From Escherichia phage vB_Ec-M-J, in the sequence record OQ718158.1: a stretch of 64,000 nucleotides of DNA, one strand, 5' to 3'. The translations under genes were made by a program, and so were the position numbers. Below the pieces are notes generated by a model. It was not told where the DNA came from, searched no databases, and worked only from the letters and a program-made list of their open reading frames with translations. Below, one piece after another: positions 5,165-52,673 of this stretch (position 1 is its first letter; every line of letters begins with the position of its first letter).

Positions 5165-5428
5165 ATGAATATCCAAGATAGATTGCAATTGTTGCACACA
5201 CTTGAAGAAGCTGCTTTTGAACTTGTTAATAAAATTGCACAAGAACTCCCAAAAGGAACCAAAGTTCGTGTTCGTGAAATGGATTATTTAACGGGAAAAA
5301 TTGATGAAAAAGTTCTAACAGTGATCAAAGTAACATACTATGAATCAGAGTTATCAATTCAATGTAATTCAGATAATGGTTACGTTTCCTACTATGGTAC
5401 AGATGTAGATATAGAGGTAATAAAATGA
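5165..5428 (+). CDS. hypothetical protein
   Basis: ATG at 5165 directly after the upstream stop; inside track ORF 5120..5428. Confidence 0.5.
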   Translation: MNIQDRLQLLHTLEEAAFELVNKIAQELPKGTKVRVREMDYLTGKIDEKVLTVIKVTYYESELSIQCNSDNGYVSYYGTDVDIEVIK

Positions 5429-11464: not shown

Positions 11465-11718
11465 TGTTCAACACCGACTATTCACATTTGCGATATCTTA
11501 TGTCTTTGGCTGATGATTTTATTAATGATTTGAAGCCGAAGTATATTGGACAAGAAGTACGTTTGATAAACTCAAGGGGTTATGGGAAGTACATTATCGC
11601 TGATATGTATATTAGCGGTGGTGAATGGCGTTTCAAAGTTAATACGTATCTTAAAGATGGTTCTTTTGCAGGTACACAAGTTACAAAACACACTAACATT
11701 ATATGGTTGGAACAATAA
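11464..11718 (+). CDS. hypothetical protein
   Basis: ATG at 11464 (MFNTDY) within track ORF 11389..11718. Confidence 0.5.
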   Translation: MFNTDYSHLRYLMSLADDFINDLKPKYIGQEVRLINSRGYGKYIIADMYISGGEWRFKVNTYLKDGSFAGTQVTKHTNIIWLEQ

Positions 11719-12461
11719 TGAAACATTTTTTGGAAGTTACAGTACCGGATGATAAAGATTTATATATCGTTGGTGATTTACACGGCAATGGAAAACTGTG
11801 GGATGCTACCAAGAAAGAATTTGGTATCACCAATAATGACTATGTTTTTTGTGTAGGTGATGTTATTGACCGTGGTGACCAGAATTCCAAACTACTATTT
11901 GAATTCCTTTTCGGTGAAAACCGTTTTATGATTGCTGGGAACCACGAGATCATGTGTGTTGATTCTGAAACTCACCGTGACTGGCATCACTGTTGGGTAC
12001 AAAATGGTGGAGATAAGTTCATTGATGAAGTTGGTGAGACAGGTATACAGTTCTTCCGTCAGTACTTAAAGGATCTCCCTATGATTATCCAAATCAATCA
12101 CCGAGGATTGAAGATTGGACTGGTTCATGCTGGTGTTCCTTTGGAATATACCACATGGGAACGTTTCGTTAGTGGGACAAAATCACTTAGTGCTGATATA
12201 ATTGAGAAGTGCTTGTGGGACCGTGATACATTCGACTACTGCAAGAAAAATAACACATATTACGTCCCTAGACTTGATGGCATCCATTGCGTCTTTAGTG
12301 GTCATACCGCAGTATCCGACCCACTCATCTACGGTAATCGTATCTGGATTGATAGTCAGTTTTTAACTGGTGATTTGACTCTTGCAACTCCCCAAAGTGG
12401 CGGGATGAGATACTTACGTAAAGAAAAAGATGAGTATTCATTTAACCGCTTCAAAAGGTAA
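11718..12461 (+). CDS. serine/threonine protein phosphatase (calcineurin-like metallophosphoesterase)
   Basis: Motifs GDLHG, GDVIDRGD, GNHE in canonical order. Confidence 0.75.
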   Translation: MKHFLEVTVPDDKDLYIVGDLHGNGKLWDATKKEFGITNNDYVFCVGDVIDRGDQNSKLLFEFLFGENRFMIAGNHEIMCVDSETHRDWHHCWVQNGGDKFIDEVGETGIQFFRQYLKDLPMIIQINHRGLKIGLVHAGVPLEYTTWERFVSGTKSLSADIIEKCLWDRDTFDYCKKNNTYYVPRLDGIHCVFSGHTAVSDPLIYGNRIWIDSQFLTGDLTLATPQSGGMRYLRKEKDEYSFNRFKR

Positions 12462-16031: not shown

Positions 16032-16823
16032 ATGAAATTTGTTGTAACGTCAGACGTACACGGTGGCACTGATTACCTCCATAGTGGTGATTACAGTGAT
16101 ACAGTTCTGATTATTGCAGGGGACTTTGATGAAGCTAAACGCAGTCGTTATCGTACTGGTATCGAATCCCTGTGCAAGCAGTTCAAGAATGTAGTACTGG
16201 TTCCTGGTAATCATGAGTACTACGGTTCAAACATTCACAAGACTAATAAAGTACTGTCCGATATGCAAGATGAGATTCCAAATTTCATCTTTTTGCAAAA
16301 CAAATTTGTATGGCTGGATGGTGTACTGCTGGTTGGTAGTACACTGTGGACTGACTTTGATAAAGGCAATGCACTGGTTAAGTTTGATGCTCAACAAAAG
16401 ATGAATGATTATAAACACATTCGTCATGGAACAACATCAGAACCGTGGAAACGTAAGCTCAAACCTGATGATGTTGAGTTCATGCATTATCAGGATAAAC
16501 AATTTATCAAAAATTCAGTTAACACAGTTCGTCTAATGAATGATAATGATTTCAAGGTTGTGGTGGTAACACATCATGCACCAAGTTATCAGAGTGTATC
16601 TCCGAGATACAAGAATGACTCACTGAATGGATGTTATTGTTCTGATATGGACCAGTATATCGAAGATTTGGGTGCTGATGTTTGGATTCATGGTCACGTT
16701 CATAGTAGCTTTGACTACATCATTGGGAAAACTCGTATCATTTGTAACCCAAGAGGTTATGAATCTTACAGTGGTGCATGTGAGAACTTCGATTACGATC
16801 CTAAATTTGTATTTGAAATCTAA
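16032..16823 (+). CDS. calcineurin-like metallophosphoesterase
   Basis: Motifs SDVHGG, AGDFDE, GNHEYY, HHAP, GHVH. Confidence 0.75.
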   Translation: MKFVVTSDVHGGTDYLHSGDYSDTVLIIAGDFDEAKRSRYRTGIESLCKQFKNVVLVPGNHEYYGSNIHKTNKVLSDMQDEIPNFIFLQNKFVWLDGVLLVGSTLWTDFDKGNALVKFDAQQKMNDYKHIRHGTTSEPWKRKLKPDDVEFMHYQDKQFIKNSVNTVRLMNDNDFKVVVVTHHAPSYQSVSPRYKNDSLNGCYCSDMDQYIEDLGADVWIHGHVHSSFDYIIGKTRIICNPRGYESYSGACENFDYDPKFVFEI

Positions 16824-17670: not shown

Positions 17671-18366
17671 ATGGTTGAACAATTCAATTTTGGTGGTTAT
17701 GCTGGTGGTGAAGTTCGCAACATTTCTATTCCTTATGTAGTTGAAAAAGTTAATGGTGCAGAACGTACTTATGATCTAGCATCTCGTATGATGCAAGACC
17801 GTATCATTTTCCTTGATACTGACTTCAATGACCAAATGGCACATATCATCAAGCAACAATTGGTGTGGTTGGATTCTCAGGGTTCTGAACCAATTACCTT
17901 CTACATTAGTTCTCCTGGTGGTTCAGTACACGCAGGTTTGGGTATCGCTGACATTGCTAAGTCTTGTGTATCTCCTATCCGTACAGTAGTAATGGGTTAT
18001 GCAGCATCAATGGGTTGCTATACACAATCAGTAGTTGGGACTAAAGGTTTCCGTCTAGGTGGTAAGCGTTCTTACTTCATGTGTCATCAAGTAAGTTCCG
18101 GTACTCAGGGTCTGATTACCGATCAGAAGATTTCTTTGAAACACTCTGACGCATTGAACACACTATTGACGAAAGAAATTGCTGAAGCAGTTGGTGTATC
18201 ACACGAACAACTACTGAAAGATGCTGACCGTGACCTGTGGTTGAACGCTGAAGAAGCACTCGAATACGGTGAACATGGTTTCATTGATGGTATCATCCTT
18301 GGTCCACGCAACGAAGAAGGTAAGTATCTCGTCAAACGTCGCGGTGGCGTGGAAGAGTGGGTCTAA
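17671..18366 (+). CDS. ClpP-family serine peptidase
   Basis: ClpP-like SSPGGSVHAG, catalytic-Ser context AASMG, His context CHQ; GAGGAAAA RBS. Confidence 0.8.
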   Translation: MVEQFNFGGYAGGEVRNISIPYVVEKVNGAERTYDLASRMMQDRIIFLDTDFNDQMAHIIKQQLVWLDSQGSEPITFYISSPGGSVHAGLGIADIAKSCVSPIRTVVMGYAASMGCYTQSVVGTKGFRLGGKRSYFMCHQVSSGTQGLITDQKISLKHSDALNTLLTKEIAEAVGVSHEQLLKDADRDLWLNAEEALEYGEHGFIDGIILGPRNEEGKYLVKRRGGVEEWV

Positions 18367-23084: not shown

Positions 23085-23837
23085 GTGATATCAGATAAAT
23101 TTATACAAAATGCTGGGAACAAAAGATTACTTATAATTTCAGGGGCAGGTCTTTCAGTTGAGAGCGGGATGGAACCATTCCGCTTTGATGATGGGTTGTG
23201 GGACAATTTCAAAATTAATGATGTTTGTAACATTGCACGACTTAGTTCTAAGTATCATGTAGTTCATTCATTTTATAATACATTGCGTGTAAAATTAGGT
23301 GAATGTCATCCTAATGAAATGCATTACTTTATTAAATCATTAGAAGATTTGTATGGTGATTGTTTTTTACACATGACTTCTAATATGGATGATCTATATA
23401 CTAGAATTGGTGGAACCGAACTCAAACTACACGGCAATTTATGTGAAGTAATTGAGAACTTTTCTATTAATACCGATGATTACAATGTCATTAATTGTGG
23501 TTATGAACCATATATTCCTAAAGCTGATGTTTTTGCAAAACCAAATGTAGTGATGATTGGTGAGTATCATCGCTACGTTGATGGGGTACGTCTCCCCATT
23601 TATGAAGAACGAAATGAAGTGTTGAAAAGTCTCACAGAAAATGATACAGTTGTAGTTATTGGAAGTAGTGATACAGTACTGGTATGGTCCAGACTAGCTG
23701 GTGCACTTCCATGCTATAGTGTAAATGTTAACATCCGAAAAAATGATAATGATTTTCTTTTTAATGAGAAGGTCATCAAACCTGCGACGAAAGCAATTCC
23801 ACAGATTGAAACTATAATTAAGGAACGAATGCGATGA
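23085..23837 (+). CDS. Sir2-family (sirtuin-like) NAD-dependent deacylase/ADP-ribosyltransferase
   Basis: GAGLSVESG..FR..GLW; TSNMD (TQNID-like); VVVIGSS; GTG start with AAGGAG RBS. Confidence 0.7.
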   Translation: MISDKFIQNAGNKRLLIISGAGLSVESGMEPFRFDDGLWDNFKINDVCNIARLSSKYHVVHSFYNTLRVKLGECHPNEMHYFIKSLEDLYGDCFLHMTSNMDDLYTRIGGTELKLHGNLCEVIENFSINTDDYNVINCGYEPYIPKADVFAKPNVVMIGEYHRYVDGVRLPIYEERNEVLKSLTENDTVVVIGSSDTVLVWSRLAGALPCYSVNVNIRKNDNDFLFNEKVIKPATKAIPQIETIIKERMR

Positions 23838-34783: not shown

Positions 34784-34818
34784 CAAAAAAGCACCCAAAT
34801 GGGTGCTTTGTCTATTTT
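34784..34818. terminator. bidirectional rho-independent terminator between convergent genes
   Basis: AAAAAA-GCACCC-AAAT-GGGTGC-TTTGTCTATTTT, between nrdG (+) and the RCC1-like gene (-). Confidence 0.7.
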
Positions 34819-35984
34819 GGTGTTTGTAACGTTACAAACGAACCAGTTAATGTATCAGAAGTTGGGTTTATACCAGTATACATAACACCATTACTTATTA
34901 CTATTGCAGTAAGGTTGTAAGACATTGAAATGAAATCATCAGAATCAGTTAGTGAATTTGGAATTAAACTAAATGTAAGTGTTGGATTTGGATTGGAACC
35001 CAAACGAGTTGTATAGTTTCCACCAGTTCCATATAAACCATCTGATTTTTTTATACCTATACCAAAATATCCTTCTGAATATACTGGATACAATTTATAA
35101 TCAGTTCCCATATCAAATGCAATCAAAGTTGGGTTTACAACGTTTCCTGATGCAGAAACACCATTACCCAAGTTACCAGCTATTCGGTTACCACATACCC
35201 ACATTTCATCAACCGATGTTGTAGTATTACGTAATACCATATATGTACCATAGTAAGAAACCATAATATCCGAAACGGTGTATGATGCTTTTGTATATTC
35301 TGTGAACGTTGTTAAGGCAGTTGTGTTACCCGTTCCAAGCTGCCCATTATTATTGATACCACATCGAAAAAGTGTATTATTATTTTTTAATATCCAAGTT
35401 CCATTATCAGCAGCTATACATATTTTTTTAACATCAGTACTAATTAATGTGAATTTAGTTACTGCTGATGTGTTTCCAGTTCCTAATGTACCATTAGCAT
35501 TTCTACCCATTCCGTAAGCTGAACCATCATTGAAATGTATAATTATATTATCCACCCAAACATGTATATCTTTTATATTATTGAGTTGTTCTTCTGTAAA
35601 TACACTAGAAAAGTAACTAGTTCTATCTACATAAACATTCGAGAATGATGACACACCCCCAAATGCATAAGTCGTGGTTGAGCATGATAAAAATTCATCA
35701 GTTTTCGTTTGTAATAATATAAATCGTCCAAAGGAACACCAAGCGTTTTTAACATTACTTCGGATAAGGGTCCAGGTAGTACGGTTAGTGCTTACATCAC
35801 CATCACCAAAAATATAATTTGAACCAGCACCACTACCACCACCACCACCAATTCCCCATAACTCACCATTATCATATAATATTATGATAGCAGAATAGTT
35901 GCTCGTTGTTGGTGTTAGTATTTTAGATATATTTGGTGTTGGAGCACGATTTCCGTACTTCACCATTCTTGCAAATGGAAGCAT
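34812..35984 (-). CDS. RCC1-repeat (beta-propeller) Gly-rich protein
   Basis: The only substantial minus-strand gene; repeated G.N.GQLG.G-type motifs (NNNGQLGTGNT, NANGTLGTGNT, AGNLGNG); second ATG (MLPFARM) chosen for AAGGAG RBS. Confidence 0.65.
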   Translation of the reverse strand: MLPFARMVKYGNRAPTPNISKILTPTTSNYSAIIILYDNGELWGIGGGGGSGAGSNYIFGDGDVSTNRTTWTLIRSNVKNAWCSFGRFILLQTKTDEFLSCSTTTYAFGGVSSFSNVYVDRTSYFSSVFTEEQLNNIKDIHVWVDNIIIHFNDGSAYGMGRNANGTLGTGNTSAVTKFTLISTDVKKICIAADNGTWILKNNNTLFRCGINNNGQLGTGNTTALTTFTEYTKASYTVSDIMVSYYGTYMVLRNTTTSVDEMWVCGNRIAGNLGNGVSASGNVVNPTLIAFDMGTDYKLYPVYSEGYFGIGIKKSDGLYGTGGNYTTRLGSNPNPTLTFSLIPNSLTDSDDFISMSYNLTAIVISNGVMYTGINPTSDTLTGSFVTLQTPK

Positions 35985-36096
35985 TTTAAGTCTCCTTATC
36001 ATTATTATATAGTATATTTATGCAACTTTCCTTTAGTTCGCTTTTAGTAACCTCTAATAAATACAGTAACTAATATCTAAATTACAAGGGATATGT

Positions 36097-38793
36097 ATGT
36101 CAAAGAAAATATATGGTGGCTTAGACGTCACTCATAATGTGACAGTTAAAGGGAAAAGAACAGTACAGGGCATCAATGAACAAGTATTTGATGCTAATGG
36201 TAATATGGAAATTGATACATATTCCAAAGAAGAATTACTTGATGTAATTAGTTTACTTCCAATCTCGCATTATGGTACACATAACTATCTACCTGCTGGG
36301 GTATCTGGTGATTTTAATGGTGCATCAGAAAACCAATCCCAACGTAGAAACAAAATACTTTTAGAAAACGATGGCACATTAGTACTATTACGTAGTGGTA
36401 CAAACGGTAGTGTTGAAGGTTTATTTTATTCTTACCTAGCGAACGCATTATCCGTTACCGATATGAGCCGTACTGTTAATACAAGCCGTCAGTATAAGCC
36501 TGGCTATTTTGGGGCAAACCGTGTTGCTATTGGTTTATACAATACCGATTCAAAAATACTGTTAGGTCGTTACAATGACACATCTACCAATACTAATGGG
36601 TTGTTTATATCAGTAACGAATGGTACATTGGATGATACTCAACATAGTGGTCTTTTTGTGAACCAAGCTGATATTTCACCTGAAGGTGGGATTGAGTATG
36701 CTATGATGGCAGAAGACGGTTCAGTTTATGTATTCAACGTCCTTAATGAAAATAACAAACTACAGATTGTTGTTGTTCGTGTTGTATTGAATATTGCAAA
36801 CGGTACTTATACTGCTACCCGAATCACGGGGTGGACAACAAAAACTTTTTACAATACTACATATACTGCTCAGAATAATATGATCATTACTGACCATGTT
36901 AACTCAACTAATATTGCTGATAAGCCCTATGTCTATGTACCACAAAATTTGGCTGGTATGGGGATTTATATGACATCTATCGATTTATATGTTGCTCAGG
37001 AGCCAGGAACGCAGAACTTCCGATTCAGAATGAATGGTGACGCATGGTTCACTATGGCAAACTACAATACCCGACCACAGCATAGTTATAGTTTCAATTT
37101 TAACATGAGTACTAAACAATGTAACTTGGATAATGGGAACGATATTGGTACATTTGCTGCACCATTTGTTGTTACAAACACAGGTTCGGCATTGGTTGCT
37201 ACTGGTAATGTTCTCAACAACGATCCGTTATATGACCATAGCGGTGCAAGAAACATTTACAGTTCATATTATTATTTGAATACAGGTGAAGTATTCTGTA
37301 CTGCATGTCCAAACTTAGCAGAACCATTACTTATGCAGAAAGCTAAATTTACTGCACAATCAATATATAGCATGATTAATGTACGTGCGAACATTTCAAC
37401 TGATTTCAGAAATGGCATAGTTCGTCCTTCATTTGGTTCAGCAGTTGGTTCTTTTATTAACGGCGTAGAATTGCTTCCAGGGAACAGTACTAAACAGTAT
37501 TCTCGTTCAACTGGTTCTGGTGCATTCCGTCCATCTTATGCAGTTCATAAAAGTACTCCTAACTTTACGTTTAATTCTTTATCACGTGGAACCATACAAG
37601 GTTATGAGCCAACAACAGAACGTGCTAATGTGACAGATAACACGAACAACAGAGTTTTTATTAGTTCCATTAGTGGTAATAATGTTACTACAAATGGTGG
37701 GATATTCATGGTAGGTCAGAGATATTCCCAATCACTATCATATGATAAAAATATGAACGGAACTGGTATCATTAGTGTTACTCAATCTGTACTTGATAAT
37801 TTCAGAAATGCTGAATACGCCAAAGTACTAAGCGACTGGAACTTATCTTCTGCTGCTTATAAAGATATGACATTGTTTGTTCCACAACAAACTGATATAC
37901 CTGCATTCGTAATGCTAAGTACAGTTACAAATACATATCAGAACTATATTAGAATTGCTGAAGTGAATGTGAATACACGTTCAGGTAATATCACTACAAT
38001 TACCTTCAAGCGTTTAGTACTAGAAAACGTTTACGGAAGTAACTTTACACCAAATGGTAATGGTAGTTTTGCATTGTCTTCTGTTGGTTTAACAATATAT
38101 GATGGTGGTTCTTTCTACTTCATAGGTGGTTCTGACCCATTATCTCACCCAACTATTGGTAATACAAACACACACCAATTCAGAGCATATGTAACAAAAG
38201 CAACTGCACAATTTGATAGTTTTATTATCAGTGGTTCACATGCAAGTTATGAGCAAGGTATTCAACCAGCAGCTTTACCTGGTATTGGTTTTGGTTATTT
38301 CCAAGCAATAGACTATGTAAACAAAATGACTTTCCAAAAATGTGGTACTACAATTGCTGATTATAATAACTGGACTGCTCAAGGTGCACCGATTAACGTA
38401 GTTTCACAAGACGTTGCTCAAGGTTTTATTGTGTACTTCACAGAAGAAACTCCAGTAATTCTTTCTGGTAAAGCATTTACATTACCGATTACTAGTATAA
38501 ACTTAACTACAGTTAAGGCTAATCCAGCAAACACATTATTTCATGTATATGTTAAAATGGAACAAGGTAATGCAAAATATGTAATAACAACTGATGTTAT
38601 TTCAGAGACTGGTACTACAGCATATAATATTTTCTGGATAGGTACTATACAAACAAACTCACTACAAATATCAAATGTTAACATACAAAAACGTTCAAGA
38701 TTGGATATTTTCGGTGCGTCACTTGAAGCTGCTGGTTCTTCATTCCCAGTTAGTTATGGTCTACCGTCACAAACAGGAACAATCAATTGGTAA
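36097..38793 (+). CDS. tail-fiber-like / putative receptor-binding protein, paralog A (898 aa)
   Basis: Asn/Thr/Ser/Gly-rich; shares N-terminal LPIS.YG and C-terminal ~130-aa module (VVSQDVAQGF...FPVS.G.P.QTGT..W) with 38806 and 39410. Confidence 0.65.
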   Translation: MSKKIYGGLDVTHNVTVKGKRTVQGINEQVFDANGNMEIDTYSKEELLDVISLLPISHYGTHNYLPAGVSGDFNGASENQSQRRNKILLENDGTLVLLRSGTNGSVEGLFYSYLANALSVTDMSRTVNTSRQYKPGYFGANRVAIGLYNTDSKILLGRYNDTSTNTNGLFISVTNGTLDDTQHSGLFVNQADISPEGGIEYAMMAEDGSVYVFNVLNENNKLQIVVVRVVLNIANGTYTATRITGWTTKTFYNTTYTAQNNMIITDHVNSTNIADKPYVYVPQNLAGMGIYMTSIDLYVAQEPGTQNFRFRMNGDAWFTMANYNTRPQHSYSFNFNMSTKQCNLDNGNDIGTFAAPFVVTNTGSALVATGNVLNNDPLYDHSGARNIYSSYYYLNTGEVFCTACPNLAEPLLMQKAKFTAQSIYSMINVRANISTDFRNGIVRPSFGSAVGSFINGVELLPGNSTKQYSRSTGSGAFRPSYAVHKSTPNFTFNSLSRGTIQGYEPTTERANVTDNTNNRVFISSISGNNVTTNGGIFMVGQRYSQSLSYDKNMNGTGIISVTQSVLDNFRNAEYAKVLSDWNLSSAAYKDMTLFVPQQTDIPAFVMLSTVTNTYQNYIRIAEVNVNTRSGNITTITFKRLVLENVYGSNFTPNGNGSFALSSVGLTIYDGGSFYFIGGSDPLSHPTIGNTNTHQFRAYVTKATAQFDSFIISGSHASYEQGIQPAALPGIGFGYFQAIDYVNKMTFQKCGTTIADYNNWTAQGAPINVVSQDVAQGFIVYFTEETPVILSGKAFTLPITSINLTTVKANPANTLFHVYVKMEQGNAKYVITTDVISETGTTAYNIFWIGTIQTNSLQISNVNIQKRSRLDIFGASLEAAGSSFPVSYGLPSQTGTINW

Positions 38794-38805: not shown

Positions 38806-39393
38806 ATGGCATATATTATAAGATCCGATATCGAAGCTATGTCACAAATCGTAGTCCAGAATAAAAACACTGGACTATCTATTAGTGATATTAATGACGT
38901 ATCGTATCGAACAGACGCAAATGGGGAATGTACATTCCCCCTCTTAACAAAAGATGAAGTTGATTCTATTGTTAACGGTTTACCATTATCACAATATGGT
39001 GAACTTTATGATGTATCTAGTTTGTCAATTACATCAAGCGGTTATTCATTACGTTTTAACCGAGAGATACCTGCATTCATCGGTGGCTATCTTTATAATT
39101 ACCCTGTTGTTGCAGTGACAGCACCAACAGTGGCATCAGGAACACAAACACAATATGTATACGCTACTTTAGTACTGGGTGAGCCAATTTATAGAATCTC
39201 AACTTCACAATTACAAGAATCACAGATTATAATGTTCATCGGGACTATTACCGTTGGAACTTCTGGTATTACTGCTATCAACATTGAACGCGTATCACGA
39301 TTCAATACATACAGACCAAGTACAACACAAAAAGGTTCATCTTTCCCAGTCAGTACTGGAAATCCAACACAAACTGGTACATTAGGCTGGTAA
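38806..39393 (+). CDS. tail-fiber-family mini-paralog (195 aa; N- and C-terminal modules only)
   Basis: N-terminus LPLSQYG and C-terminus RFNTYRPSTTQKGSSFPVSTGNPTQTGTLGW match the flanking large paralogs. Confidence 0.6.
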   Translation: MAYIIRSDIEAMSQIVVQNKNTGLSISDINDVSYRTDANGECTFPLLTKDEVDSIVNGLPLSQYGELYDVSSLSITSSGYSLRFNREIPAFIGGYLYNYPVVAVTAPTVASGTQTQYVYATLVLGEPIYRISTSQLQESQIIMFIGTITVGTSGITAINIERVSRFNTYRPSTTQKGSSFPVSTGNPTQTGTLGW

Positions 39394-39409: not shown

Positions 39410-42139
39410 ATGTCATCCAAACGCATCATTGGTAGTGCTGCTATACTTGGAAATTTAGCAATTGGTGGAAAGTACGCTATGCGTACTTTTAATGGTACAG
39501 CACCAGACGCAAATACAGGTATTGTTGACTATCCAATTTATAAAAGATCAGAAGTTCAAAAAATACTTGATATGTTACCAATCTCCCGTATAGGGGAAAT
39601 GGATTATCTACCATTAAACGTTAATGGTTCATACGAAGGGGCAACGTCGCTTTCAGATGTATACCGTATGCAACCAACAATAGTCGAAGATGATGGTACT
39701 GGTGTGGTATTACGTGCTGGTACAAATGGTAGTACTGAAGGATATTACTATGCATTCATTCGTGATTTGCGTAATATTGATGCACTAACACAAAGTAGTG
39801 TTATCAGTACTACATCAAAATATCATCCTAGAATTCTTCCAAGTACTGAAAATGTTAAACAGTTTATCGGAACGAATGGTTATGAATTACTAGTTAGCCT
39901 ATCTAGTGCAAGTAATTATATTTTCACTTTAACAAATGGTACATTTAACGAAGTTGCACATATTCACGCTTCTATCGCTGCTACATCATTTGGTACAGAT
40001 AAACCATTGTATGCACATATCGTTAATGATAAAGTATTTGTGTGGTGCAAAGACACTACTATAGCAAACTATGGTTTGGCTTTAACATTATATACTGTTA
40101 ATACAAGTAGTATTAAAGATGGTACTATGAGTACTTTTGCTAAGGTTACTGGTTTTTCTGGTCAAACCTTAAGAAGTGTTAACTACACAAGTGCTAATAA
40201 TTTGAAAATTTATGAAAGATTATATTCAGTTGGAACTAGTAGTGATTCATTATTTGAATGCACTTCACCAGTTACACGAGTTGAATATTCAGATTATACA
40301 GATTATAATATACAAGCAAACGTAAGTCCAGATTTATCAAAGATTAGAATTACATTATTTCCAACTAACCGTTTAGTATCAAATCTATATATTAGTACTG
40401 TTTATGCTAGTGGTTTTAGTTTTGTTTATACTATCAACTCTAAATCATTATCAATTGATGGAAGTAGTAGAGCACCAATAGCAGCGGAATATAATGATGT
40501 TGATGGATTCACATTAACAAACCCATTTGCCATTGAGATGAACAACTTCATGGGTACACAGTTAGGTGTTCCGCAATTAGGTAACGTTGGTTCTATATGC
40601 CAAACCTATGACGGTTTAGTATTCAGTACTCGTGCTCGTTGGAGTTCTTCTGAAACCTATGGTATTCAGGTTTATAACGTAACAGGAACACCATATGATA
40701 GTTGGGTTGCCAGTACTCGCAAAGCGAACAATTCTAAATTTGTAAACGTTGCCCCAACATATGGTAGTGCAGTAGGTGAAAACCTTTTAGGAACACGTTT
40801 TATTGATAAACGTAAAGTACTGTTAGCATGTTCTGGAACATATGAAGATGAGTCATATGGTTATAACAATACAGTATTTTCTGAAATTGGCACTGATCCA
40901 ACCTTCCAGTTCAATTCAGTACAAAACAATACAACACTTAATGGTTTTGCACCACAAGCCAACCGAACTCGCCTCGGCGACAACTACAAATATACAGGTA
41001 TGATTTCATTAATTGATACTGACGGTTCAGTTAAATGTTATGGGACATCATTCATTGAAGGTGTATACAAAACAAGTGGTGGTTTGTTTAACCCAGATAC
41101 TTTAGAATTTGATGGTTCTTATACAATTGGTGATAATGTTCTGGAAACATTAAAACAAGAAATACTTGCTAATATTGGAATAGTAGGAGCATTTACTGGT
41201 AAAATTGCTTTATATTATGTACCAGATAGTTCTTTCTCAAAATCTATTGCGGTGGTTTCTGCATATAACTTAGGAAATAACCAAGGTTATGCAATATATT
41301 CTGAAGTTGATGTCACTGTTTCAGGAACCAATATTAGTTCTGCGTCTATGGTGAGTTCTAGATACGAAACACTTAATTCTGTAACAGGTATTGTAACCGA
41401 AGCCTATATGAAACGCTGTACTGGTCTAACTGTTGCTAAGTATTCTGGTTTTGGTTATATTGGTGTTGATGCAGTTCATCAGTTTTCACAACCTGGTAAT
41501 GCTCAATTCAAATTGATGATTGCTAAAACAGTGAATGGTTTGATTACATCTAACCGATTTATGTCATCCAGCTACATAGATAATGGCAATGCATTCCAGC
41601 ACGGAGTTATACCAGGTGTTGGATTTGGATACTATCATCTTCAAGATTCAGATTATCAAACTAAAGCAGTGTTTAGTCTCTTTGGGACAACATCAGCACA
41701 GATGGATGGGTTGATTGATGGTTCAGGAACTGTACAAGATAAAATCGTAGTAGTTTCACAAGATGTTGCTGAAGGTTTCACTGTGTACTTCACCCGTGAA
41801 GTTCCGGTATTCCTTGGTGGTATGTTTGATAGATTAGCGATTCAAACCATAGAATTAAGTACTATTAAAACTAACCCAGCTAACAGTACTTTTTATCTTT
41901 ACATTCAAATGAACCGTAACACAAGAAAAGCGGCATACGTTATCAGTACAACTCTTCTTGATGAGACATTGACAAACGTATATGTTGGTGATATTGTTAC
42001 TGGAAGTACGAGTATTACGTCAATTGATACTGAAAAGGTAACCCGATTCTTGACATACAGACCTAGTACGACCAAGCGTGGTTCTGCTATCCCAGCAAGT
42101 ACTGGTGTTCCTTCAAGCTCTGGTACACGTTGGCATTAA
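39410..42139 (+). CDS. tail-fiber-like / putative receptor-binding protein, paralog B (909 aa)
   Basis: Collinear similarity to 36097 (GTNGS.EG..Y, VVSQDVAEGFTVYFT, C-terminal RPSTTKRGSAIPASTGVPSSSGTRWH). Confidence 0.65.
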   Translation: MSSKRIIGSAAILGNLAIGGKYAMRTFNGTAPDANTGIVDYPIYKRSEVQKILDMLPISRIGEMDYLPLNVNGSYEGATSLSDVYRMQPTIVEDDGTGVVLRAGTNGSTEGYYYAFIRDLRNIDALTQSSVISTTSKYHPRILPSTENVKQFIGTNGYELLVSLSSASNYIFTLTNGTFNEVAHIHASIAATSFGTDKPLYAHIVNDKVFVWCKDTTIANYGLALTLYTVNTSSIKDGTMSTFAKVTGFSGQTLRSVNYTSANNLKIYERLYSVGTSSDSLFECTSPVTRVEYSDYTDYNIQANVSPDLSKIRITLFPTNRLVSNLYISTVYASGFSFVYTINSKSLSIDGSSRAPIAAEYNDVDGFTLTNPFAIEMNNFMGTQLGVPQLGNVGSICQTYDGLVFSTRARWSSSETYGIQVYNVTGTPYDSWVASTRKANNSKFVNVAPTYGSAVGENLLGTRFIDKRKVLLACSGTYEDESYGYNNTVFSEIGTDPTFQFNSVQNNTTLNGFAPQANRTRLGDNYKYTGMISLIDTDGSVKCYGTSFIEGVYKTSGGLFNPDTLEFDGSYTIGDNVLETLKQEILANIGIVGAFTGKIALYYVPDSSFSKSIAVVSAYNLGNNQGYAIYSEVDVTVSGTNISSASMVSSRYETLNSVTGIVTEAYMKRCTGLTVAKYSGFGYIGVDAVHQFSQPGNAQFKLMIAKTVNGLITSNRFMSSSYIDNGNAFQHGVIPGVGFGYYHLQDSDYQTKAVFSLFGTTSAQMDGLIDGSGTVQDKIVVVSQDVAEGFTVYFTREVPVFLGGMFDRLAIQTIELSTIKTNPANSTFYLYIQMNRNTRKAAYVISTTLLDETLTNVYVGDIVTGSTSITSIDTEKVTRFLTYRPSTTKRGSAIPASTGVPSSSGTRWH

Positions 42140-42146
42140 AAATTTT

Positions 42147-42177
42147 AAGCTCGTCTATTGACGGGCTTTTCTTTTAT
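42147..42177 (+). terminator. rho-independent terminator
   Basis: AGCTCGTC-TATT-GACGGGCT (one mismatch) followed by TTTTCTTTT. Confidence 0.6.
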
Positions 42178-42186
42178 GTGTATAAT
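42158..42186 (+). promoter_or_regulatory. sigma70-like promoter overlapping the terminator
   Basis: TTGACG 42158-42163, 17-bp spacer, TATAAT 42181-42186 preceded by TGTG. Confidence 0.45.
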
Positions 42187-42209: not shown

Positions 42210-42776
42210 ATGGTCAAATCTTTACTACCACCACCAAAGCGTCACAAAATCCAAGAAATGAAAGACCAACGTACATTAAAGATGTACAACAATTTAGTTA
42301 AGTTACTGTGTAAAAGTCCATCGCTCAAAGCAGAGTTTAAAACTGATGATGACCGCAAAGCACTAATTGAGATGAAGTATATGCTCAGTAAAATGTCCTT
42401 TTACAAATTTGTAAAAGAATACGCATCTGACCCATTTAGTCCTCGTTGGAGAACCAAACCAAGAGAGTTTTTTTTCGGTGGTTCATATACTGATATCATT
42501 CAAGATACTGTGATAGGCGTAGAGTTCGAGATTGATTATGAGCCGAATGGTGTGGAAAACTTGCTGATTGAGAAACGTTTACCAAGTGAAGAAGAAATTT
42601 ATGTTTATGCAAGAAAACTTTCAACTTACAGTTCAAGAATTACTCTAGGCAAGTTAGATTCATTTATTATTTTCTATATACGTGTTGGCGTAGACAAAAT
42701 GGTAACTAAACTCAATGAACTTTCATTACAACAAAAACAGATTAATGCATACAAAGACATTACTGATTTATACTAA
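42210..42776 (+). CDS. small paralog family member 1 (188 aa)
   Basis: Shares N-terminal motif (SPSLKAEFKTDDDRKALIEMKYMLSK) with the next two genes. Confidence 0.55.
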   Translation: MVKSLLPPPKRHKIQEMKDQRTLKMYNNLVKLLCKSPSLKAEFKTDDDRKALIEMKYMLSKMSFYKFVKEYASDPFSPRWRTKPREFFFGGSYTDIIQDTVIGVEFEIDYEPNGVENLLIEKRLPSEEEIYVYARKLSTYSSRITLGKLDSFIIFYIRVGVDKMVTKLNELSLQQKQINAYKDITDLY

Positions 42777-42788
42777 TGAGGAATGAAT

Positions 42789-43304
42789 ATGTTTTTTGGC
42801 CCAGTTGGAAAACAAAACAGTACTTTAATTTGGCATGAAATTATCTTTAAAATTATATCAAAAAGTTTCACACTTAAAGATATCATCAATACAGATCAAG
42901 ATCGTCGTGTTCTGTTAGAAGCAAAATATAAATTGAGCAAACACCCTTTGCTACCATTAATCATTGATTACGTTAATGATTATGAATCCAGTCGTTGGAA
43001 GTTTGAAGAAGGCGGTTTATTTCGTGGAAAAACATTCTACGGTGCGGAACGATATGTATTCAGTGATGCAACAAATGGCGTTAAGTTTGCTATTAGAAAC
43101 TTTAACTCCAAAGAAAATGATTATCTTGAAAGTGGAGTGAAAGTATATATCGATAACAATAGCAATGTTCTAACATATGACGAATCACTAATTATGTTAC
43201 AAATAATGCGTGGCGTTGAAGGTGTAAGACACAATCTTACTAATTTGAAAATTCAGCAAAATGATATACATAATAGACAGAAAATTAAGGGTTTATATAA
43301 ATGA
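42789..43304 (+). CDS. small paralog family member 2
   Basis: FTLKDIINTDQDRRVLLEAKYKLSK; ATG 42789 with GAGGA RBS. Confidence 0.5.
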   Translation: MFFGPVGKQNSTLIWHEIIFKIISKSFTLKDIINTDQDRRVLLEAKYKLSKHPLLPLIIDYVNDYESSRWKFEEGGLFRGKTFYGAERYVFSDATNGVKFAIRNFNSKENDYLESGVKVYIDNNSNVLTYDESLIMLQIMRGVEGVRHNLTNLKIQQNDIHNRQKIKGLYK

Positions 43305-43810
43305 TTTCATTTTTCAAAAAGAAAGAAAAAGTTGATGAAACTGGATTAGAATCGTTTCTATGGACTCTTATCATCAAAAAAAGTCCATTGATAAAAGAAT
43401 ATGCCATCAATGATACTAATAGAAAAACTATCATTGAATACAAATACGAATTAGCAAAATGTGATCCGATTGTTTACCACTTCGTAAAGTACTGTTCTGA
43501 AAATTTATCGGATATCACTATTGAACACGAGTCAGTACCAATGAGTTTTCCTTATGGAGATTGGGTATATACTTATGATATTTTTGATGGGTCTAACGGA
43601 TTCAGTTTTTATTTCACATCAAATAAAGCATATGTTCGAATCAAAACAGATATAGGTTGGGTATTGCATAGCACAAATAAAGAAGATTATAATTTATTAG
43701 CTGATGTATACAGAAGTGTTAAGAACTCAAAGGATATTGATGAAAGAATTAAAAAGCAAAATCGTATTTCTTTATCAATAGAAACATACAAGTCAAAGTA
43801 TGGTGGTTAA
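43301..43810 (+). CDS. small paralog family member 3
   Basis: SPLIKEYAINDTNRKTIIEYKYELAK; ATGA overlap. Confidence 0.5.
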   Translation: MISFFKKKEKVDETGLESFLWTLIIKKSPLIKEYAINDTNRKTIIEYKYELAKCDPIVYHFVKYCSENLSDITIEHESVPMSFPYGDWVYTYDIFDGSNGFSFYFTSNKAYVRIKTDIGWVLHSTNKEDYNLLADVYRSVKNSKDIDERIKKQNRISLSIETYKSKYGG

Positions 43811-43812
43811 CT

Positions 43813-44214
43813 ATGACTACAGTTGATGATATCTACAGTACTATACGAAATATGAGTACAGATAGAAAAGTGTTTGGTGACAAAGAAAAGTCAAAATGTT
43901 ATGGCATCGATTCTTTTGATATTATTTCATACGAATATAATAACAACGGGACCAGTTCACTAAACATTGTGTGTCCACGAGATCCAGAAAATAATTTCAT
44001 GTACGTTGAAATTAACAATGATGGTATGTTCTTTACTAAAGTATATAAAGGTGGGAAAGAATACGAACCCATCGAAGTAATGAATGAAGAGAAATTCTTC
44101 CAAGAAGATACCATCATCAATCTTGGATTTAGTTACAATGACTATCAAGTACTGGATCATGATTTTAAACGATACTATAATGGTTTTCTAAAGGAGTTAA
44201 CGATTTACTTATGA
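43813..44214 (+). CDS. hypothetical protein
   Basis: Track ORF. Confidence 0.5.
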   Translation: MTTVDDIYSTIRNMSTDRKVFGDKEKSKCYGIDSFDIISYEYNNNGTSSLNIVCPRDPENNFMYVEINNDGMFFTKVYKGGKEYEPIEVMNEEKFFQEDTIINLGFSYNDYQVLDHDFKRYYNGFLKELTIYL

Positions 44215-45449
44215 AAAACAATTTTCTAGAACAAACTATTGTGAAACACTTAGCTGGTTCACAGGCGTATGGCACAAGCACACCAGAAAGTGATACCGAT
44301 TATCGTGGTATCTTCCTTGCAAACAAAGAATTTATCCTAACTCCTTTTTTTAATGTTAAGGAAGTTTCAGATCCTTCTGAAGAAGATACTAAATTTTATG
44401 AAGTCAATCAGTACTTAAGTCTGTATACTGAAGCTAACCCAAACATTCTTGAATCACTATGGGTTAAACCTGAACACATCGTAGAAAGTACTGAAATCTA
44501 TGACTATCTACGCTCATTCAATCAGCAATTATTGAGTTCAAAGATTGCACACTCATACAGTGGATATGCATACAATCAGGTTAAGCGTATGTCTAATCAC
44601 CACGGCTGGCTCGATAAGGAACGAATTGCTGAACGTAAACTAAATGAAATTTTAGAAGAACATCCAGTTGACGAAGTACTTTCATGGATGTATGATACAT
44701 TCCCGCAGTATTTGGTAGACCGTTTGAATAAATCCAATCTTCACCCATTCAATGCTACAAAAATTGATTTTGAAAAATACATGCGTGATACTTCATTACA
44801 ATTAGTTTCAACACAAGCATTGAAACAATATCATTTTGTACGTTTAGTACATAATTATAGTACTGATAAAGTATTAGATCGTGATTTCAATTTATTGAAT
44901 TACAATTCAGGGTATGAACTAATCCATTACGGTGAAAACATCTTTGGGGTAATTATCAACCCGAATGAAAGTACAGTGAATGCTGATGGTTCACTACGTT
45001 ACTTCAACAAAGAACGTACTACAGAAGAATTGAAAGTTCGTCCTGAACTCATTGTAAAATTCAATGAAAAGGAATACAAAGAAAATAGTGAGAACCGTAA
45101 GAGTTATCACAAATGGAAGCAGAATCGTAATGCCAAACGTGCTATTCTTGAATCACACCACGGTTATGACTGCAAACATGCTATGCATACAATCAGGCTG
45201 CTGAATACAGCACAGGAAGCACTTGAAACTGGTATCATCCAAGTTCACCGACCGGATGCTGCTATGTTGATGGACATTCGTAACGGGAAGTGGTTGTATC
45301 AAGAAGTTATGGATTATTTCAACGAAAAGGTTGACTACATCCGAAATGTGGCGTATCATAAGACCCATCTACCGAAGCGACCAAACATAAAGTTGGCTAC
45401 GAAGGTACTATTAGATATCCGTGAAATGCAATGGTACAGTAAAAAATAA
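44211..45449 (+). CDS. Pol-beta-superfamily nucleotidyltransferase (RlaP-like)
   Basis: N-terminal hGS-x9-D-x-D motif (AGSQAYGTSTPESDTDYRG) recalled as typical of RlaP-type predicted nucleotidyltransferases. Confidence 0.55.
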   Translation: MKNNFLEQTIVKHLAGSQAYGTSTPESDTDYRGIFLANKEFILTPFFNVKEVSDPSEEDTKFYEVNQYLSLYTEANPNILESLWVKPEHIVESTEIYDYLRSFNQQLLSSKIAHSYSGYAYNQVKRMSNHHGWLDKERIAERKLNEILEEHPVDEVLSWMYDTFPQYLVDRLNKSNLHPFNATKIDFEKYMRDTSLQLVSTQALKQYHFVRLVHNYSTDKVLDRDFNLLNYNSGYELIHYGENIFGVIINPNESTVNADGSLRYFNKERTTEELKVRPELIVKFNEKEYKENSENRKSYHKWKQNRNAKRAILESHHGYDCKHAMHTIRLLNTAQEALETGIIQVHRPDAAMLMDIRNGKWLYQEVMDYFNEKVDYIRNVAYHKTHLPKRPNIKLATKVLLDIREMQWYSKK

Positions 45450-45459: not shown

Positions 45460-45876
45460 ATGCTAAACGAACAAATCAAAGACGCACTACGTGTACTGAA
45501 TCGCGAAGTTAACCGCATCCAGAAAAGTACTGATCGTTATAAACTAATGCATGAACTTAGACTTTCGTTGGAAGCTATCAATAATGGCGAATGGTATCTT
45601 GAACCAGAATATCGCACACGTGAACTAACTGACGTTGAAAAAGCAATTGTCAAATTCATTACAAGTCGCGACAAAAATGCATCCGAAAAAGATGTATCAA
45701 TGAACTTCCATCTTACTAAATGTGAAGTCGTGGAAAAATTTAAATTCGATTGGCTTGACTGGATTGAAATGATCATGGAACTTGAAGAAGAATTCAAAGT
45801 TGAAGTTGATTTGGAATACGAGAATGAAAACACTAAACTGTATAAACTCGTAGATCATATTCAAAAAATGTTGTAA
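45460..45876 (+). CDS. ACP-like (acyl-carrier-protein fold) protein lacking the phosphopantetheine-attachment serine
   Basis: C-terminal FDWLDWIEMIMELEEEFKVEVD resembles ACP helix II ([17 protein letters not shown]) with Ser replaced by Trp; ATG 45460 with AGAGGA RBS. Confidence 0.5.
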   Translation: MLNEQIKDALRVLNREVNRIQKSTDRYKLMHELRLSLEAINNGEWYLEPEYRTRELTDVEKAIVKFITSRDKNASEKDVSMNFHLTKCEVVEKFKFDWLDWIEMIMELEEEFKVEVDLEYENENTKLYKLVDHIQKML

Positions 45877-45929: not shown

Positions 45930-46304
45930 ATGAGTGTACTAGAAATTATTGTTTCAAAAGTTTTAATACCATATTGGAAACCAATTTTGGTAGTAGGAGT
46001 AATGGCAGGTTGTGTTTACGGTGGATGGTCAGCAAATACTTATTATACTGGTTATAAAGAAAGTATTGACCAAAAAATAGAAAAGAAAGTTGATTCTGCA
46101 CTCGCTAAGATGCAGCAAGAAAATGCAAAAAACTATATAGAAACCAAAAAGATAATGCAAGATAATGCTAAAGTTATCGAGACACAAGTGCCTATTATAG
46201 TAGAAAGAGAAGTTTACAAAAATGTATGTCTAGATGAAGATGGCGTTAAACTTCTGAATGAACTTAAACAGAATTCCCTTGCAGCGAGGAATAAATTCAA
46301 ATGA
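45930..46304 (+). CDS. i-spanin-like (Rz-type) inner-membrane protein
   Basis: N-terminal TM helix then charged coiled-coil-like region; ATGA-coupled to a downstream lipoprotein gene. Confidence 0.55.
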   Translation: MSVLEIIVSKVLIPYWKPILVVGVMAGCVYGGWSANTYYTGYKESIDQKIEKKVDSALAKMQQENAKNYIETKKIMQDNAKVIETQVPIIVEREVYKNVCLDEDGVKLLNELKQNSLAARNKFK

Positions 46305-46615
46305 AATACGCTTTAGTATTTGCAATTTCTTTTCTATTAATTAGTGGTTGTGCTGAAGAAATTAAGTATCAACCTAAACCAATTGTAGAACAAGAAATCT
46401 TACTTGAACGTTGTGACGAAAATACACCACTACCAAGTAAAATCATGGTCGATAAAAACGGGTTCAGAGGATATGATGGTGCTGAAATTCTTGCAGTACT
46501 CGTAAAATGGGATGCAATGTACAATGACTGTGCACTAAAACATGATGCATTAATTAAAACTATTCGTGATTTACAAAATCAAGATGTTAAGGTTAAAATT
46601 AAATCCGAGGATTAA
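46301..46615 (+). CDS. o-spanin-like (Rz1-type) lipoprotein
   Basis: Signal peptide with lipobox LISGC immediately downstream of the i-spanin-like gene. Confidence 0.55.
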   Translation: MKYALVFAISFLLISGCAEEIKYQPKPIVEQEILLERCDENTPLPSKIMVDKNGFRGYDGAEILAVLVKWDAMYNDCALKHDALIKTIRDLQNQDVKVKIKSED

Positions 46616-46617: not shown

Positions 46618-47229
46618 ATGTCAAAATATCAGGTCTACTATGTTGCCAAACTATCACTTCTTGATGAGTTAAATCAAAGAAGTACACAGATGAAACGCTA
46701 TACATATAACGGTGTTACTTTCCGATACTTCCCACAAAAAGTACTTACATTCGTTAAGAATTGTAAATGCGTTGCGTGTGGTATTGAAGCTACTGAAGTT
46801 CGCATTGAGCGTTCACATAGCACTGATCCGGTATATGGTAAACCTCACTTAAATGTCTATGCAGTTTGTGGTCTATATGAAGTACTGATGACAGTAGATC
46901 ATAACCAACTAGCATCTAAGGGTGGACCTGATTTAGAGTCAAATTACAACACAATGTGTTCACGTTGTAACAGTCTTCGTTCTAATAAAACTGAATCAGT
47001 AGGTGAATTCCTGGAAAAAGTTAAGGGTAGAAATCTACTGGAAGAGCATATGAATGATTTTTTCAATAAAGATAAGAAGAAATCTAAAACTCCTACTCCA
47101 GAAGAATTGGAAGAACGCCGTTTACGTACAGAACTATGGGAAACCGACCATATATGGCATGTTCGTGATTTTGGACGACATATGAAAGCTCTAAAAAAAG
47201 AACAAAAGAAATTGAATAATCACAATTAA
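46618..47229 (+). CDS. HNH endonuclease (possible free-standing homing endonuclease)
   Basis: HNH signature VDHNQLASKGG...N..CSRCNSLRSNK plus CKCVACG zinc motif. Confidence 0.6.
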   Translation: MSKYQVYYVAKLSLLDELNQRSTQMKRYTYNGVTFRYFPQKVLTFVKNCKCVACGIEATEVRIERSHSTDPVYGKPHLNVYAVCGLYEVLMTVDHNQLASKGGPDLESNYNTMCSRCNSLRSNKTESVGEFLEKVKGRNLLEEHMNDFFNKDKKKSKTPTPEELEERRLRTELWETDHIWHVRDFGRHMKALKKEQKKLNNHN

Positions 47230-47239
47230 TATGTTATGA

Positions 47240-47273
47240 TAGGGACTTGAGAAATCGAGTCCCTATTTTTTTG
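47240..47273 (+). terminator. rho-independent terminator
   Basis: TAGGGACT...AGTCCCTA hairpin followed by TTTTTTT. Confidence 0.75.
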
Positions 47274-51288: not shown

Positions 51289-51768
51289 ATGTATAACCTT
51301 ACAATTATCCGCGAACCAAATGAATATGACGGTAATACAACCTATGGTGAAGTTTTGGTATTTCAAAGTACTGAACAAAGTGGTATTGAACATAAATTAA
51401 AAGATTATTTACGTGATCATTTATATCTGCACCGTACTGATGCAAATTGTAATTATGGTGATATAATGTTTATTGTAACGCACAATGGTGCGGTAATTGA
51501 ACATATGAACATGACAAATGTAATGGATTTTTATAATTACACTGATACTTCTTTTCCATTGGATAACTATTTCAGTACTGTTTTTGATGCGTTACGTAAG
51601 AACGTTGCTAAAAATGATAGATTCTGTACTAATTTTAGATTATTAGAAACAAATACAAGAAAGAATCTTTCTAAGAAGTATGATGAAGAACATAAGAAAA
51701 ATCAGGAAATTCAACGTTTACATGAGTTAATGAAGAAATATCCCAACGAGGTCAAATATGGCTCTTAG
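51289..51768 (+). CDS. hypothetical protein
   Basis: Track ORF; AAGGAG RBS. Confidence 0.5.
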   Translation: MYNLTIIREPNEYDGNTTYGEVLVFQSTEQSGIEHKLKDYLRDHLYLHRTDANCNYGDIMFIVTHNGAVIEHMNMTNVMDFYNYTDTSFPLDNYFSTVFDALRKNVAKNDRFCTNFRLLETNTRKNLSKKYDEEHKKNQEIQRLHELMKKYPNEVKYGS

Positions 51769-52096
51769 AGGACAAACTCAATATAAGTGTATTGAAGAAA
51801 TCAGAAAGAAAGATGGAACACTTTTTGACAGGAAATTAAAACAAGAATATAAAGACCTAAGAGATGTTATCCGAAATGAAAGTTTCGGTGGGAAGCGTAG
51901 GCAGAAGATTTATGAATTTCTGAAGAATGGTGTAGAAATTCAAGTCAATGGTCTTCATTGTGTACAAACCAAAAACGATCCAGATATTTTACGTCTTTTA
52001 AAAGAGGGTAAAATAGAAATGTTCAATATCCCAATTTCATCCTATGGTAATAGATTAAAATGTAAGCACACGTACTTAAGGATTAAAAATGGGTAA
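51758..52096 (+). CDS. hypothetical protein
   Basis: Track ORF. Confidence 0.45.
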   Translation: MALRGQTQYKCIEEIRKKDGTLFDRKLKQEYKDLRDVIRNESFGGKRRQKIYEFLKNGVEIQVNGLHCVQTKNDPDILRLLKEGKIEMFNIPISSYGNRLKCKHTYLRIKNG

Positions 52097-52673
52097 ATTA
52101 GTATATTACTATGGTAGTATGTCTAGTGGTAAAAGTACTCATCTTTTACAAAAAGCATATAACCATAAGAAAAATGGAATGAAGGTAATTTACTTAACCA
52201 GTGCACTTGATGATCGTTATGGAACAGGAAAGATTACTTCAAGAATTGGCATCGAAGCTGAGGCTGAAGTAATTCCAAAAAATGACATTAGTGTTCTTCT
52301 TAAAGTTAAAGAAACACTCAAAAATGACGTTGACATTAACAGTATCTATGTTGATGAATGTCAATTTTTAAACAGAGAACAAATTGACCATTTAGCTGAT
52401 ATAGCAGATAATTATGGTGTTGATGTTTCCTGTTATGGAATCCGAACAGATTTTGAATCCAATCTTTTTGAAGGTTCACAAAGACTGTTCGAAATAGCTG
52501 ATGACATACATGAACTTAAGAACGTGTGTGAGAATCAGAAGTGTGGCAAAGAAGCCACTATGAATGCCCGTATAGTTGAAAGTACTGATAAAGTCTTTAT
52601 TGGTGGTGATGAATCATACAAGAGTCTATGCAGAACTTGCTATATGGATTATATGAGGAATAAAAATGGTTGA
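52089..52673 (+). CDS. tk: thymidine kinase
   Basis: P-loop GSMSSGKST, VDECQF, GIRTDF..LFEGS, C-terminal Cys pairs, as in T4/E. coli Tdk. Confidence 0.85.
   Translation: MGKLVYYYGSMSSGKSTHLLQKAYNHKKNGMKVIYLTSALDDRYGTGKITSRIGIEAEAEVIPKNDISVLLKVKETLKNDVDINSIYVDECQFLNREQIDHLADIADNYGVDVSCYGIRTDFESNLFEGSQRLFEIADDIHELKNVCENQKCGKEATMNARIVESTDKVFIGGDESYKSLCRTCYMDYMRNKNG

Follow-up and report, generated by a model that had tools for sequence, protein, structure and literature searches.

The reading frame at 44211..45449 (plus strand) of Escherichia phage vB_Ec-M-J (sequence record OQ718158.1) encodes a protein that, judged from its sequence, is almost certainly a member of the RlaP family (PF10127) of Pol-beta nucleotidyltransferases (NTases). 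By analogy with characterized bacterial relatives, it would add one or two nucleotides to broken tRNA ends ahead of resealing by the phage RNA ligase Rnl1, a reading to which we assign a probability of about 0.6. The role proposed for it in the phage is one of counter-defence. The window, by which we mean the whole 64,000-nucleotide stretch that was analysed, carries the candidate partners of such a pathway at a distance from the gene.

Gene identity and catalytic residues

The frame runs from an ATG to a stop codon and specifies 412 amino acids, at exactly the position that a first-pass annotation of this DNA had given; the opposite strand over it holds only short ORFs of 51 and 71 aa. A GenBank protein named 'nucleotidyltransferase [Escherichia phage vB_Ec-M-J]' is 100% identical to the product. 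The window shares ~99% identity with Ecwhy_1, fEgEco12, Turkey3, EC.P1 and WPEC5, which are jumbo coliphages of the Rak2/121Q-like kind, and ~83% with PBECO4 and 121Q of the genus Asteriusvirus. The WPEC5 orthologue is labelled 'nucleotidyltransferase; RlaP superfamily', and the gene goes unmentioned in the fEgEco12 genome paper. Base composition is uniform along the window, which therefore gives no sign of recent acquisition.

The Pfam RlaP profile, whose gathering cutoff is 23 bits, scores the protein at 59.8 bits (E 4.2e-16), much more than chance would give, and aligns residues 14-131 with profile positions 25-144. The PHROGs family phrog_388, 'nucleotidyltransferase', spans it at full length (residues 3-411, E 4.8e-75), and precomputed PF10127 assignments are present in all homologs listed. 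None of the other Pfam NTase families was significant for the protein, an NCBIfam search returned nothing meaningful, and PDB sequences yielded no match to the single protein or to a profile built from 36 homologs. The likeness to RlaP that the first-pass annotation had proposed is thereby borne out, by the above-cutoff match, the PF10127 assignments of the homologs and the WPEC5 label. The HMM search that it had proposed as a check found the RlaP profile significant and those of CD-NTase and AbiEii not, and the absence of any nucleotidyltransferase profile match, which it had named as evidence against itself, is contradicted by both PF10127 and phrog_388.

Residues 15-33, AGSQAYGTSTPESDTDYRG, hold the catalytic signature G16-S17-x10-D28-x-D30, which fits the Pol-beta pattern hG[GS]-x9-13-DxD. 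The first-pass annotation had recognized this pattern correctly and had trivially miscounted its spacing as x9. G16-S17 lies at 44256-44261 and D28-x-D30 at 44292-44300, followed within the same domain by D59 (44385-44387) and E64 (44400-44402), all on the plus strand. These six residues are invariant in an alignment of 36 sequences reaching down to ~38% identity, as are N76-P77-N78. The Pol-beta signature and a third carboxylate are therefore conserved together in the homologs, and the loss of acidic residues that the annotation had thought might undo its proposal is seen in none of the 36 at D28, D30, D59 or E64. With its catalytic motifs intact, the protein is most likely competent for catalysis, as predicted from its sequence.

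Domain architecture and a clade-specific insert

Three segments make up the protein. The N-terminal Pol-beta NTase domain (aa 1-130; 44211..44600, plus strand) is delimited by the Pfam match, the invariant columns and the alignment to RlaP. It is followed by a clade-specific insert of ~170 aa (aa ~131-300; 44601..45110, plus strand), recognized from alignment gaps and missing from a 250-aa RlaP, and by the RlaP C-terminal helical (HEPN-like) domain (aa ~301-412; 45111..45446, plus strand). The last segment bears the invariant motif G318-Y-D-x-K-H-x-x-H326-x-x-R329 (45162-45197, plus strand) and is rich in basic invariant positions, with W302, K303, R306, N307, R310, D320, K322, H326, R329, R347, D349 and R357 conserved in all 36 homologs. 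[quoted passage not shown]

The Pfam model covers the N-terminal domain only, both in this protein and in all phrog_388-type homologs tested, and homology of the C-terminal domain to RlaP is predicted transitively. In Bacillus phage Thurquoise, a 250-aa NTase (Thu_138) fits the RlaP model from profile position 20 to 249. Its N-terminal half (aa 16-154 region) aligns to aa 7-137 of the vB_Ec-M-J protein with 27% identity (E 2e-11), and its C-terminal half (aa 142-240) to aa 303-403 with 33% identity (E 4e-16), while the insert is wholly absent. Since the two segments are contiguous in Thu_138 and split in the phage protein, the latter corresponds to a canonical RlaP core interrupted by ~170 residues. 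A Tequatrovirus NrdC.11-type protein is likewise collinear with it in both domains (E 2e-12 and E 2e-5). T4 NrdC.11 has been listed as an uncharacterised RlaP member (bioRxiv 10.64898/2025.12.29.696909). Like the phage RlaPs of the T4 NrdC.11 type and of jumbo phages, the protein is a full-length member of phrog_388; unlike the T4 NrdC.11 type, with which it shares only ~26-28% identity, it has an unrelated middle region.

The insert itself is composite. Its beta-rich part (aa ~205-285) is common, by alignment, to the ~350-aa homologs of rV5-like phages. Its helical part (aa ~136-200, ~65 aa) aligns only within the Rak2-like jumbo-phage clade, which is set apart from the rV5-like members by this extra sub-insert. 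Searched alone, the insert matched nothing in Pfam, and among PDB sequences it drew only a chance-level TyrRS (E 0.56). When 1.84 billion representatives were searched exhaustively with phmmer, the insert turned up in no more than 14 clusters, each time in an RlaP-type protein and at an unchanged position. This subfamily-specific insert at the domain junction is the sole undescribed detail of the protein. Its role is possibly RNA or tRNA recognition. We consider it rather doubtful that it serves as a substrate-selection module, converting a promiscuous end-tailing enzyme into one directed to specific cleaved tRNAs or to a different acceptor altogether; if it did, it could allow accurate restoring of an excised wobble nucleotide against 'repair-defying' nucleases of the RloC type.

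Structure prediction, which the first-pass annotation had also recommended, gave an AlphaFold2 model (36-sequence alignment) with a pLDDT of 91.6 and a pTM of 0.81, to which CdnE structures came up only at Foldseek E > 1. Foldseek of this model against the PDB returned nothing at E <= 1e-3. In BFVD, many phage 'nucleotidyltransferases' share the fold.

Three long homologs (682-744 aa) were considered as informative fusions and rejected as such, their extra length consisting of inteins rather than functional partners. Each carries an intein of ~330 aa that begins with Cys1, ends in GN followed by C or T, and contains a LAGLIDADG domain. The insertion point splits the invariant GYD-C/T-KHAMH motif precisely after D320 and before C321, a position consistent with this motif being functionally critical.

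Gene neighbourhood and RNA-repair genes

Four small co-directional ORFs precede the gene (42210..44214, plus strand): three paralogs (phrog_18641 / phrog_7868) and a phrog_22376 member that overlaps the start of the NTase frame by 4 nt. None of the four has a Pfam domain. The synteny of this array is kept in PBECO4, K64-1 and Munch. Downstream of the NTase gene, the tight co-directional array continues with an ACP-like ORF, the genes of an i-/o-spanin pair and that of an HNH endonuclease. Pattern scans of the plus strand place a terminator-like hairpin at 42147-42168, overlapping a sigma-70-like promoter (TTGACG-17-TATAAT, 11/12 match) at 42158-42186, and a strong terminator-like hairpin with a 13-bp stem and a T-run at 47238..47267, beyond the ACP-like, spanin and HNH genes. 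These are consensus matches only, in a region whose overall counts are not above those of shuffled sequence, and they are suggestive of a predicted transcription unit that holds the NTase gene, starting at 42147..42186 and ending at 47238..47267. The annotators of Munch placed a terminator at the position equivalent to the upstream hairpin.

Further upstream lie ORFs of 898 and 909 aa, which belong to phrog_3573 ('unknown function') and gave no Pfam match. The first-pass annotation had set the gene immediately after a tail-fiber block. It does lie downstream of these large ORFs, but not immediately so: the four small ORFs (~2 kb), the hairpin and the promoter come between. For the tail-fiber label itself, the only source is GenBank names in relatives, which are inconsistent.

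No RNA-repair domains occur in the immediate neighbours of the NTase gene, and the 64-kb window contains no tRNA genes and no Rfam families. The window further contains SIR2, Macro, Nudix and phosphoesterase genes. Elsewhere in it, three candidate genes for RNA repair were found, all on the plus strand and with all motifs intact. A T4 Rnl1-type RNA ligase (5425..6567) is identified by Pfam RNA_lig_T4_1 and T4_Rnl1_C, by the KxDG motif MPKLDGS and by its similarity to T4 Rnl1 (PDB 2c5u, E 3.2e-56); it is presumed to be the sealing partner, which needs 3′-OH and 5′-P ends. A polynucleotide kinase-phosphatase, Pnkp (7390..8322; HAD_PNKP E 1.8e-43, AAA_33), with the P-loop GLPGCGKT and a DIDGT motif, is presumed to be the end-healing partner that makes such ends. 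The third is a class-II CCA-adding / poly(A) polymerase-type tRNA nucleotidyltransferase (57995..59110) with a Pfam PolyA_pol head, RNA-binding domains and the motifs GGYVRD...DKD and RRD. Class-II CCA-adding enzymes also belong to the Pol-beta superfamily and also repair tRNA 3′ ends template-free, but they form another family: the PolyA_pol head (PF01743) present at 57995..59110 has no match in the RlaP-like protein, and the two are separate enzymes.

The repair genes lie 13-38 kb from the NTase gene, Rnl1 and Pnkp being ~37 kb upstream, in different predicted transcription units; the relationship is one of co-occurrence, not of operonic linkage. Distant RlaP homologs are likewise not adjacent to ligases. 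Together with RlaP, the three would make up a chemically coherent tRNA-repair kit, and the setting resembles that described by Iyer et al. in 2021, with Rnl1, Pnkp and a CCA enzyme in a jumbo phage. Among the NTases that restore RNA ends in jumbo phages, that study reported RlaP to be the most prevalent and to be distributed in parallel with RNA ligases (PMC7824862).

The rV5-like phage 4MG, from a sister clade with the same NTase subfamily, was examined as a check that was able to contradict the repair reading. By tblastn, the window's Rnl1 and Pnkp have no homolog in 4MG. This phage carries 21 tRNAs, a 'tRNA nucleotidyltransferase' (CCA enzyme) with 47% identity to that of the window, a Rnl2-like 'RNA ligase' with a weak match to T4 Rnl2 (E 0.002), and gp246, an 'RNA ligase 1' by annotation alone. 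As 4MG has a Rnl2-like ligase, the co-occurrence of NTase and ligase holds, the type of ligase differing.

Candidate function and competing readings

The RlaPs of Pseudomonas fluorescens and P. aeruginosa extend RNA 3′-OH ends by one or two NMPs, accept any NTP and also dATP as donor, prefer Mn2+, and are inactive on DNA and proteins (bioRxiv 10.64898/2025.12.29.696909). Given a mimic of cleaved tRNA, they favour the 3′ end at the break, and they also label rRNA-sized species, full-length tRNA and fragments (bioRxiv 10.64898/2025.12.29.696909). From these in vitro data, Carruthers, Fatma and Huang propose that RlaP refills nucleotides lost to RloC-like 'smart' ribotoxins prior to ligation, its 3′-OH product being directly suited to 5′-P ligases (bioRxiv 10.64898/2025.12.29.696909). 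The vB_Ec-M-J protein shares with the Pseudomonas enzymes the Pfam family, the catalytic motif set and the core architecture including the terminal helix, and its genome also holds an RNA ligase and end-healing enzymes. Unlike them, it falls into a different PF10127 sequence cluster and has ~170 extra residues at the domain junction, and in place of their adjacent RtcB/RtcA operon its partner would be an ATP-dependent Rnl1 ~37 kb away.

In the proposed pathway, a host anticodon nuclease would cut a tRNA, enzymes of the RloC type additionally excising a nucleotide, and the phage Pnkp would convert the break into 3′-OH and 5′-P ends. RlaP would then replace the missing nucleotide or nucleotides at the 3′-OH, with D28, D30 and a third carboxylate (E64 or D59) holding two divalent metal ions and one or two NMPs being transferred from NTPs without a template. 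Sealing of the refilled break by Rnl1 would complete the repair. The RNA 3′-end substrate, the order of the steps, the biological target and the role of the insert are what we infer for this protein; the chemistry is coherent with the published 3′-OH requirement of RlaP and with the end requirements of Rnl1. Counting against the repair role are the lack of an operon with the ligase and the insert, which could change the substrate.

Among the other activities that an enzyme of this family might have, tailing of RNA 3′ ends without any break repair deserves some weight, either as a tag that marks host or phage RNAs for decay or stabilisation or as upkeep of tRNA 3′ ends alongside the CCA enzyme. 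The broad labelling of RNA by the Pseudomonas RlaPs, with little NTP specificity, speaks for it, as does the absence of operonic linkage with the ligase. So does the position of the gene in other phages: the NTase gene of 4MG is separated from that of the CCA-adding enzyme by 2.5 kb, and a Vibrio jumbo phage has tRNA genes close to its copy. We nevertheless regard it as unlikely, given that the window already encodes a dedicated CCA-type enzyme, that characterised RlaPs prefer the 3′ end at the nick in the cleaved-tRNA mimic, and that RlaP and RNA ligases are reported to be co-distributed in jumbo phages (PMC7824862). Alternatively, RNA might not be the substrate, and the enzyme would serve DNA or nucleotide metabolism. 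WPEC5 annotation puts the gene among nrdD/nrdG, tk and dNMP kinase genes, T4 nrdC.11 sits between tk and nrdC, a T4-like homolog lies downstream of tk, and the Bacillus phage homolog adjoins RNR genes. Such regions are, however, mixed blocks of early or non-essential genes; the terminator and promoter part the NTase cassette from the genes upstream, and RlaPs did not act on DNA, all of which makes this reading very improbable.

The remaining alternatives draw on resemblance of fold. Nucleotidylation of a small molecule or a protein, for instance a metabolite or host factor, as carried out by KNTase/LinB/ANT or by the adenylyltransferases DrrA and GlnE, is improbable: the similarity is generic and at fold level (6-17% identity), the protein has no sequence-profile match to any of these enzymes, and characterised RlaPs left proteins unmodified. 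Slimmer still are the chances of a HalB-like template-independent oligo(deoxy)nucleotide synthase acting as a decoy, for instance by making oligo-dA that keeps a Hailong-type DNA-gated channel closed. Hailong HalB (PDB 9dbh), a tyrosine-primed synthase of poly-dA that has 217 aa and is partnered by the HalA channel, resembles the model at Foldseek E 0.02 with 14% identity. The two proteins have no sequence relationship at profile level, the 36-homolog profile finding no HalB among PDB sequences; a HalA-type partner is absent here. Moreover, characterised RlaPs stop after one or two additions and do not extend DNA, and nothing points to protein priming. A signalling enzyme of the CD-NTase kind, or a toxin-antitoxin NTase like AbiEii or MNT, which the first-pass annotation could not tell apart from RlaP, can be given next to no probability. 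Only the Pol-beta fold that they have in common speaks for it; the weak fold matches include MNT and HEPN structures, MNT at E >= 0.14 and CdnE at E >= 1.2. No Pfam hit to CD-NTase, AbiEii or NTP_transf_2 was obtained for the protein, the last being sub-threshold in two homologs, and the neighbours have no recognisable effector or antitoxin domain. PADLOC gave 0 hits to any defence model, and CD-NTase, AbiEii and other defence-NTase readings are therefore rejected; the protein groups neither with the CD-NTases of CBASS nor with AbiEii/MNT.

Refilling of broken tRNA ends ahead of Rnl1 is the reading that we prefer. The repair concept is already known, having been published for RlaP generally and for jumbo phages particularly. 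Near-identical phages also annotate the gene as one for a nucleotidyltransferase of the RlaP type, and the finding is therefore an ordinary one. The first-pass annotation had expected either of its alternatives to be of interest in a phage, an expectation weakened because jumbo-phage RlaP has been described since 2021. The gene is one more example of a known idea, and its practical use is as a candidate with which a phage RlaP could first be tested biochemically, the natural partners Rnl1 and Pnkp being encoded in the same genome. If the proposal is true, RlaP would constitute one step of a phage tRNA-repair pathway that heals, refills and seals, and this pathway would defeat host anticodon nucleases that remove a nucleotide to make simple religation useless.

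Genes flanking the RlaP-family nucleotidyltransferase

Three tandem small paralogous ORFs of 188, 173 and 169 aa (window 42210..43810, plus strand; phrog_18641/phrog_7868, "unknown function") occupy the stretch directly 5′ of the cassette containing the RlaP-family nucleotidyltransferase (NTase). They share a motif resembling D-x-x-R-K/R-x-L-I-E-x-K-Y-x-L-S/A-K and are kept together with the NTase in phages PBECO4, K64-1 and Munch. On the 3′ side, the first ORF (phrog_18343; 45460..45876, plus strand) is similar in its C-terminal region to acyl/D-alanyl carrier proteins (phrog_5934, E 3.6e-8), and is named ACP in the annotation of some relatives. An Rz-like i-spanin (45930..46304), an overlapping o-spanin candidate that is lipoprotein-like with an LISGC lipobox (46301..46615), and an HNH endonuclease (46618..47229) are found on the same strand, all three within the transcription unit predicted for the NTase from consensus matches.

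Two paralogs of ~900 aa (phrog_3573; 36097..38793 and 39410..42139, plus strand) enclose a 195-aa ORF (phrog_26864; 38806..39393, plus strand) that resembles their C-termini. A Pfam search returned no domain in any of the three. Names given to the ~900-aa ORFs vary among relatives between tail fiber, tail protein and structural protein, and PBECO4 carries an additional pair inserted immediately 3′ of the NTase (locus L006, 5391..8715), labeled "tail fiber protein" and "tail protein". The sole large minus-strand ORF of the window, encoding 396 aa with RCC1-like repeats (34812..36002), resides within ~1.2 kb of DNA flanked by nrdG and the first member of this pair (898 aa). This segment is missing from WPEC5, a ~99%-identical jumbo coliphage, and GC skew changes sign locally there.

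Inteins in NTase homologs

An intein of ~330 aa is present in three metagenomic NTase homologs (P0121, P0092 and P0128 in alignment A2). Within the RlaP C-terminal domain it interrupts the invariant motif GYD-C-KHAMH at the D320/C321 junction, equivalent to 45168..45173 in the window. Among these three inteins, a LAGLIDADG domain was seen in that of P0128 only.

Genes annotated in pieces

The CCA-adding-type NTase gene (57995..59110, with flanks ~57870..59630, plus strand) is labeled "hypothetical" in WPEC5. Its position between two WPEC5 "nudix hydrolase" fragments suggests that a Nudix gene has been split or interrupted around it. Two-piece annotations also occur for thymidine kinase (51289..51768 and 52089..52673) and for the nrdD large subunit. 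Two UniProt viral proteins with BFVD entries (A0A2Z5HFQ2, 432 aa; A0A2Z5HJ75, 134 aa) match separate parts of the RlaP-family NTase at 99-100% identity, which suggests that this gene is annotated as two pieces in one close relative, through a frameshift or a mis-call.

NAD+/ADP-ribose and conflict-related functions

The plus strand further encodes two calcineurin-like phosphoesterases (11703..12461 and 16032..16823), a ClpP-like protease (17671..18366), a SIR2-family protein (23085..23837) and a Macro domain (60450..60926) whose match is borderline (21.7 bits, slightly under the 22-bit cutoff). Nudix and PhoH genes are assigned per the WPEC5 annotation. Counting the borderline Macro domain and these WPEC5-annotated genes, the window is rich in NAD+/ADP-ribose and conflict-related functions.
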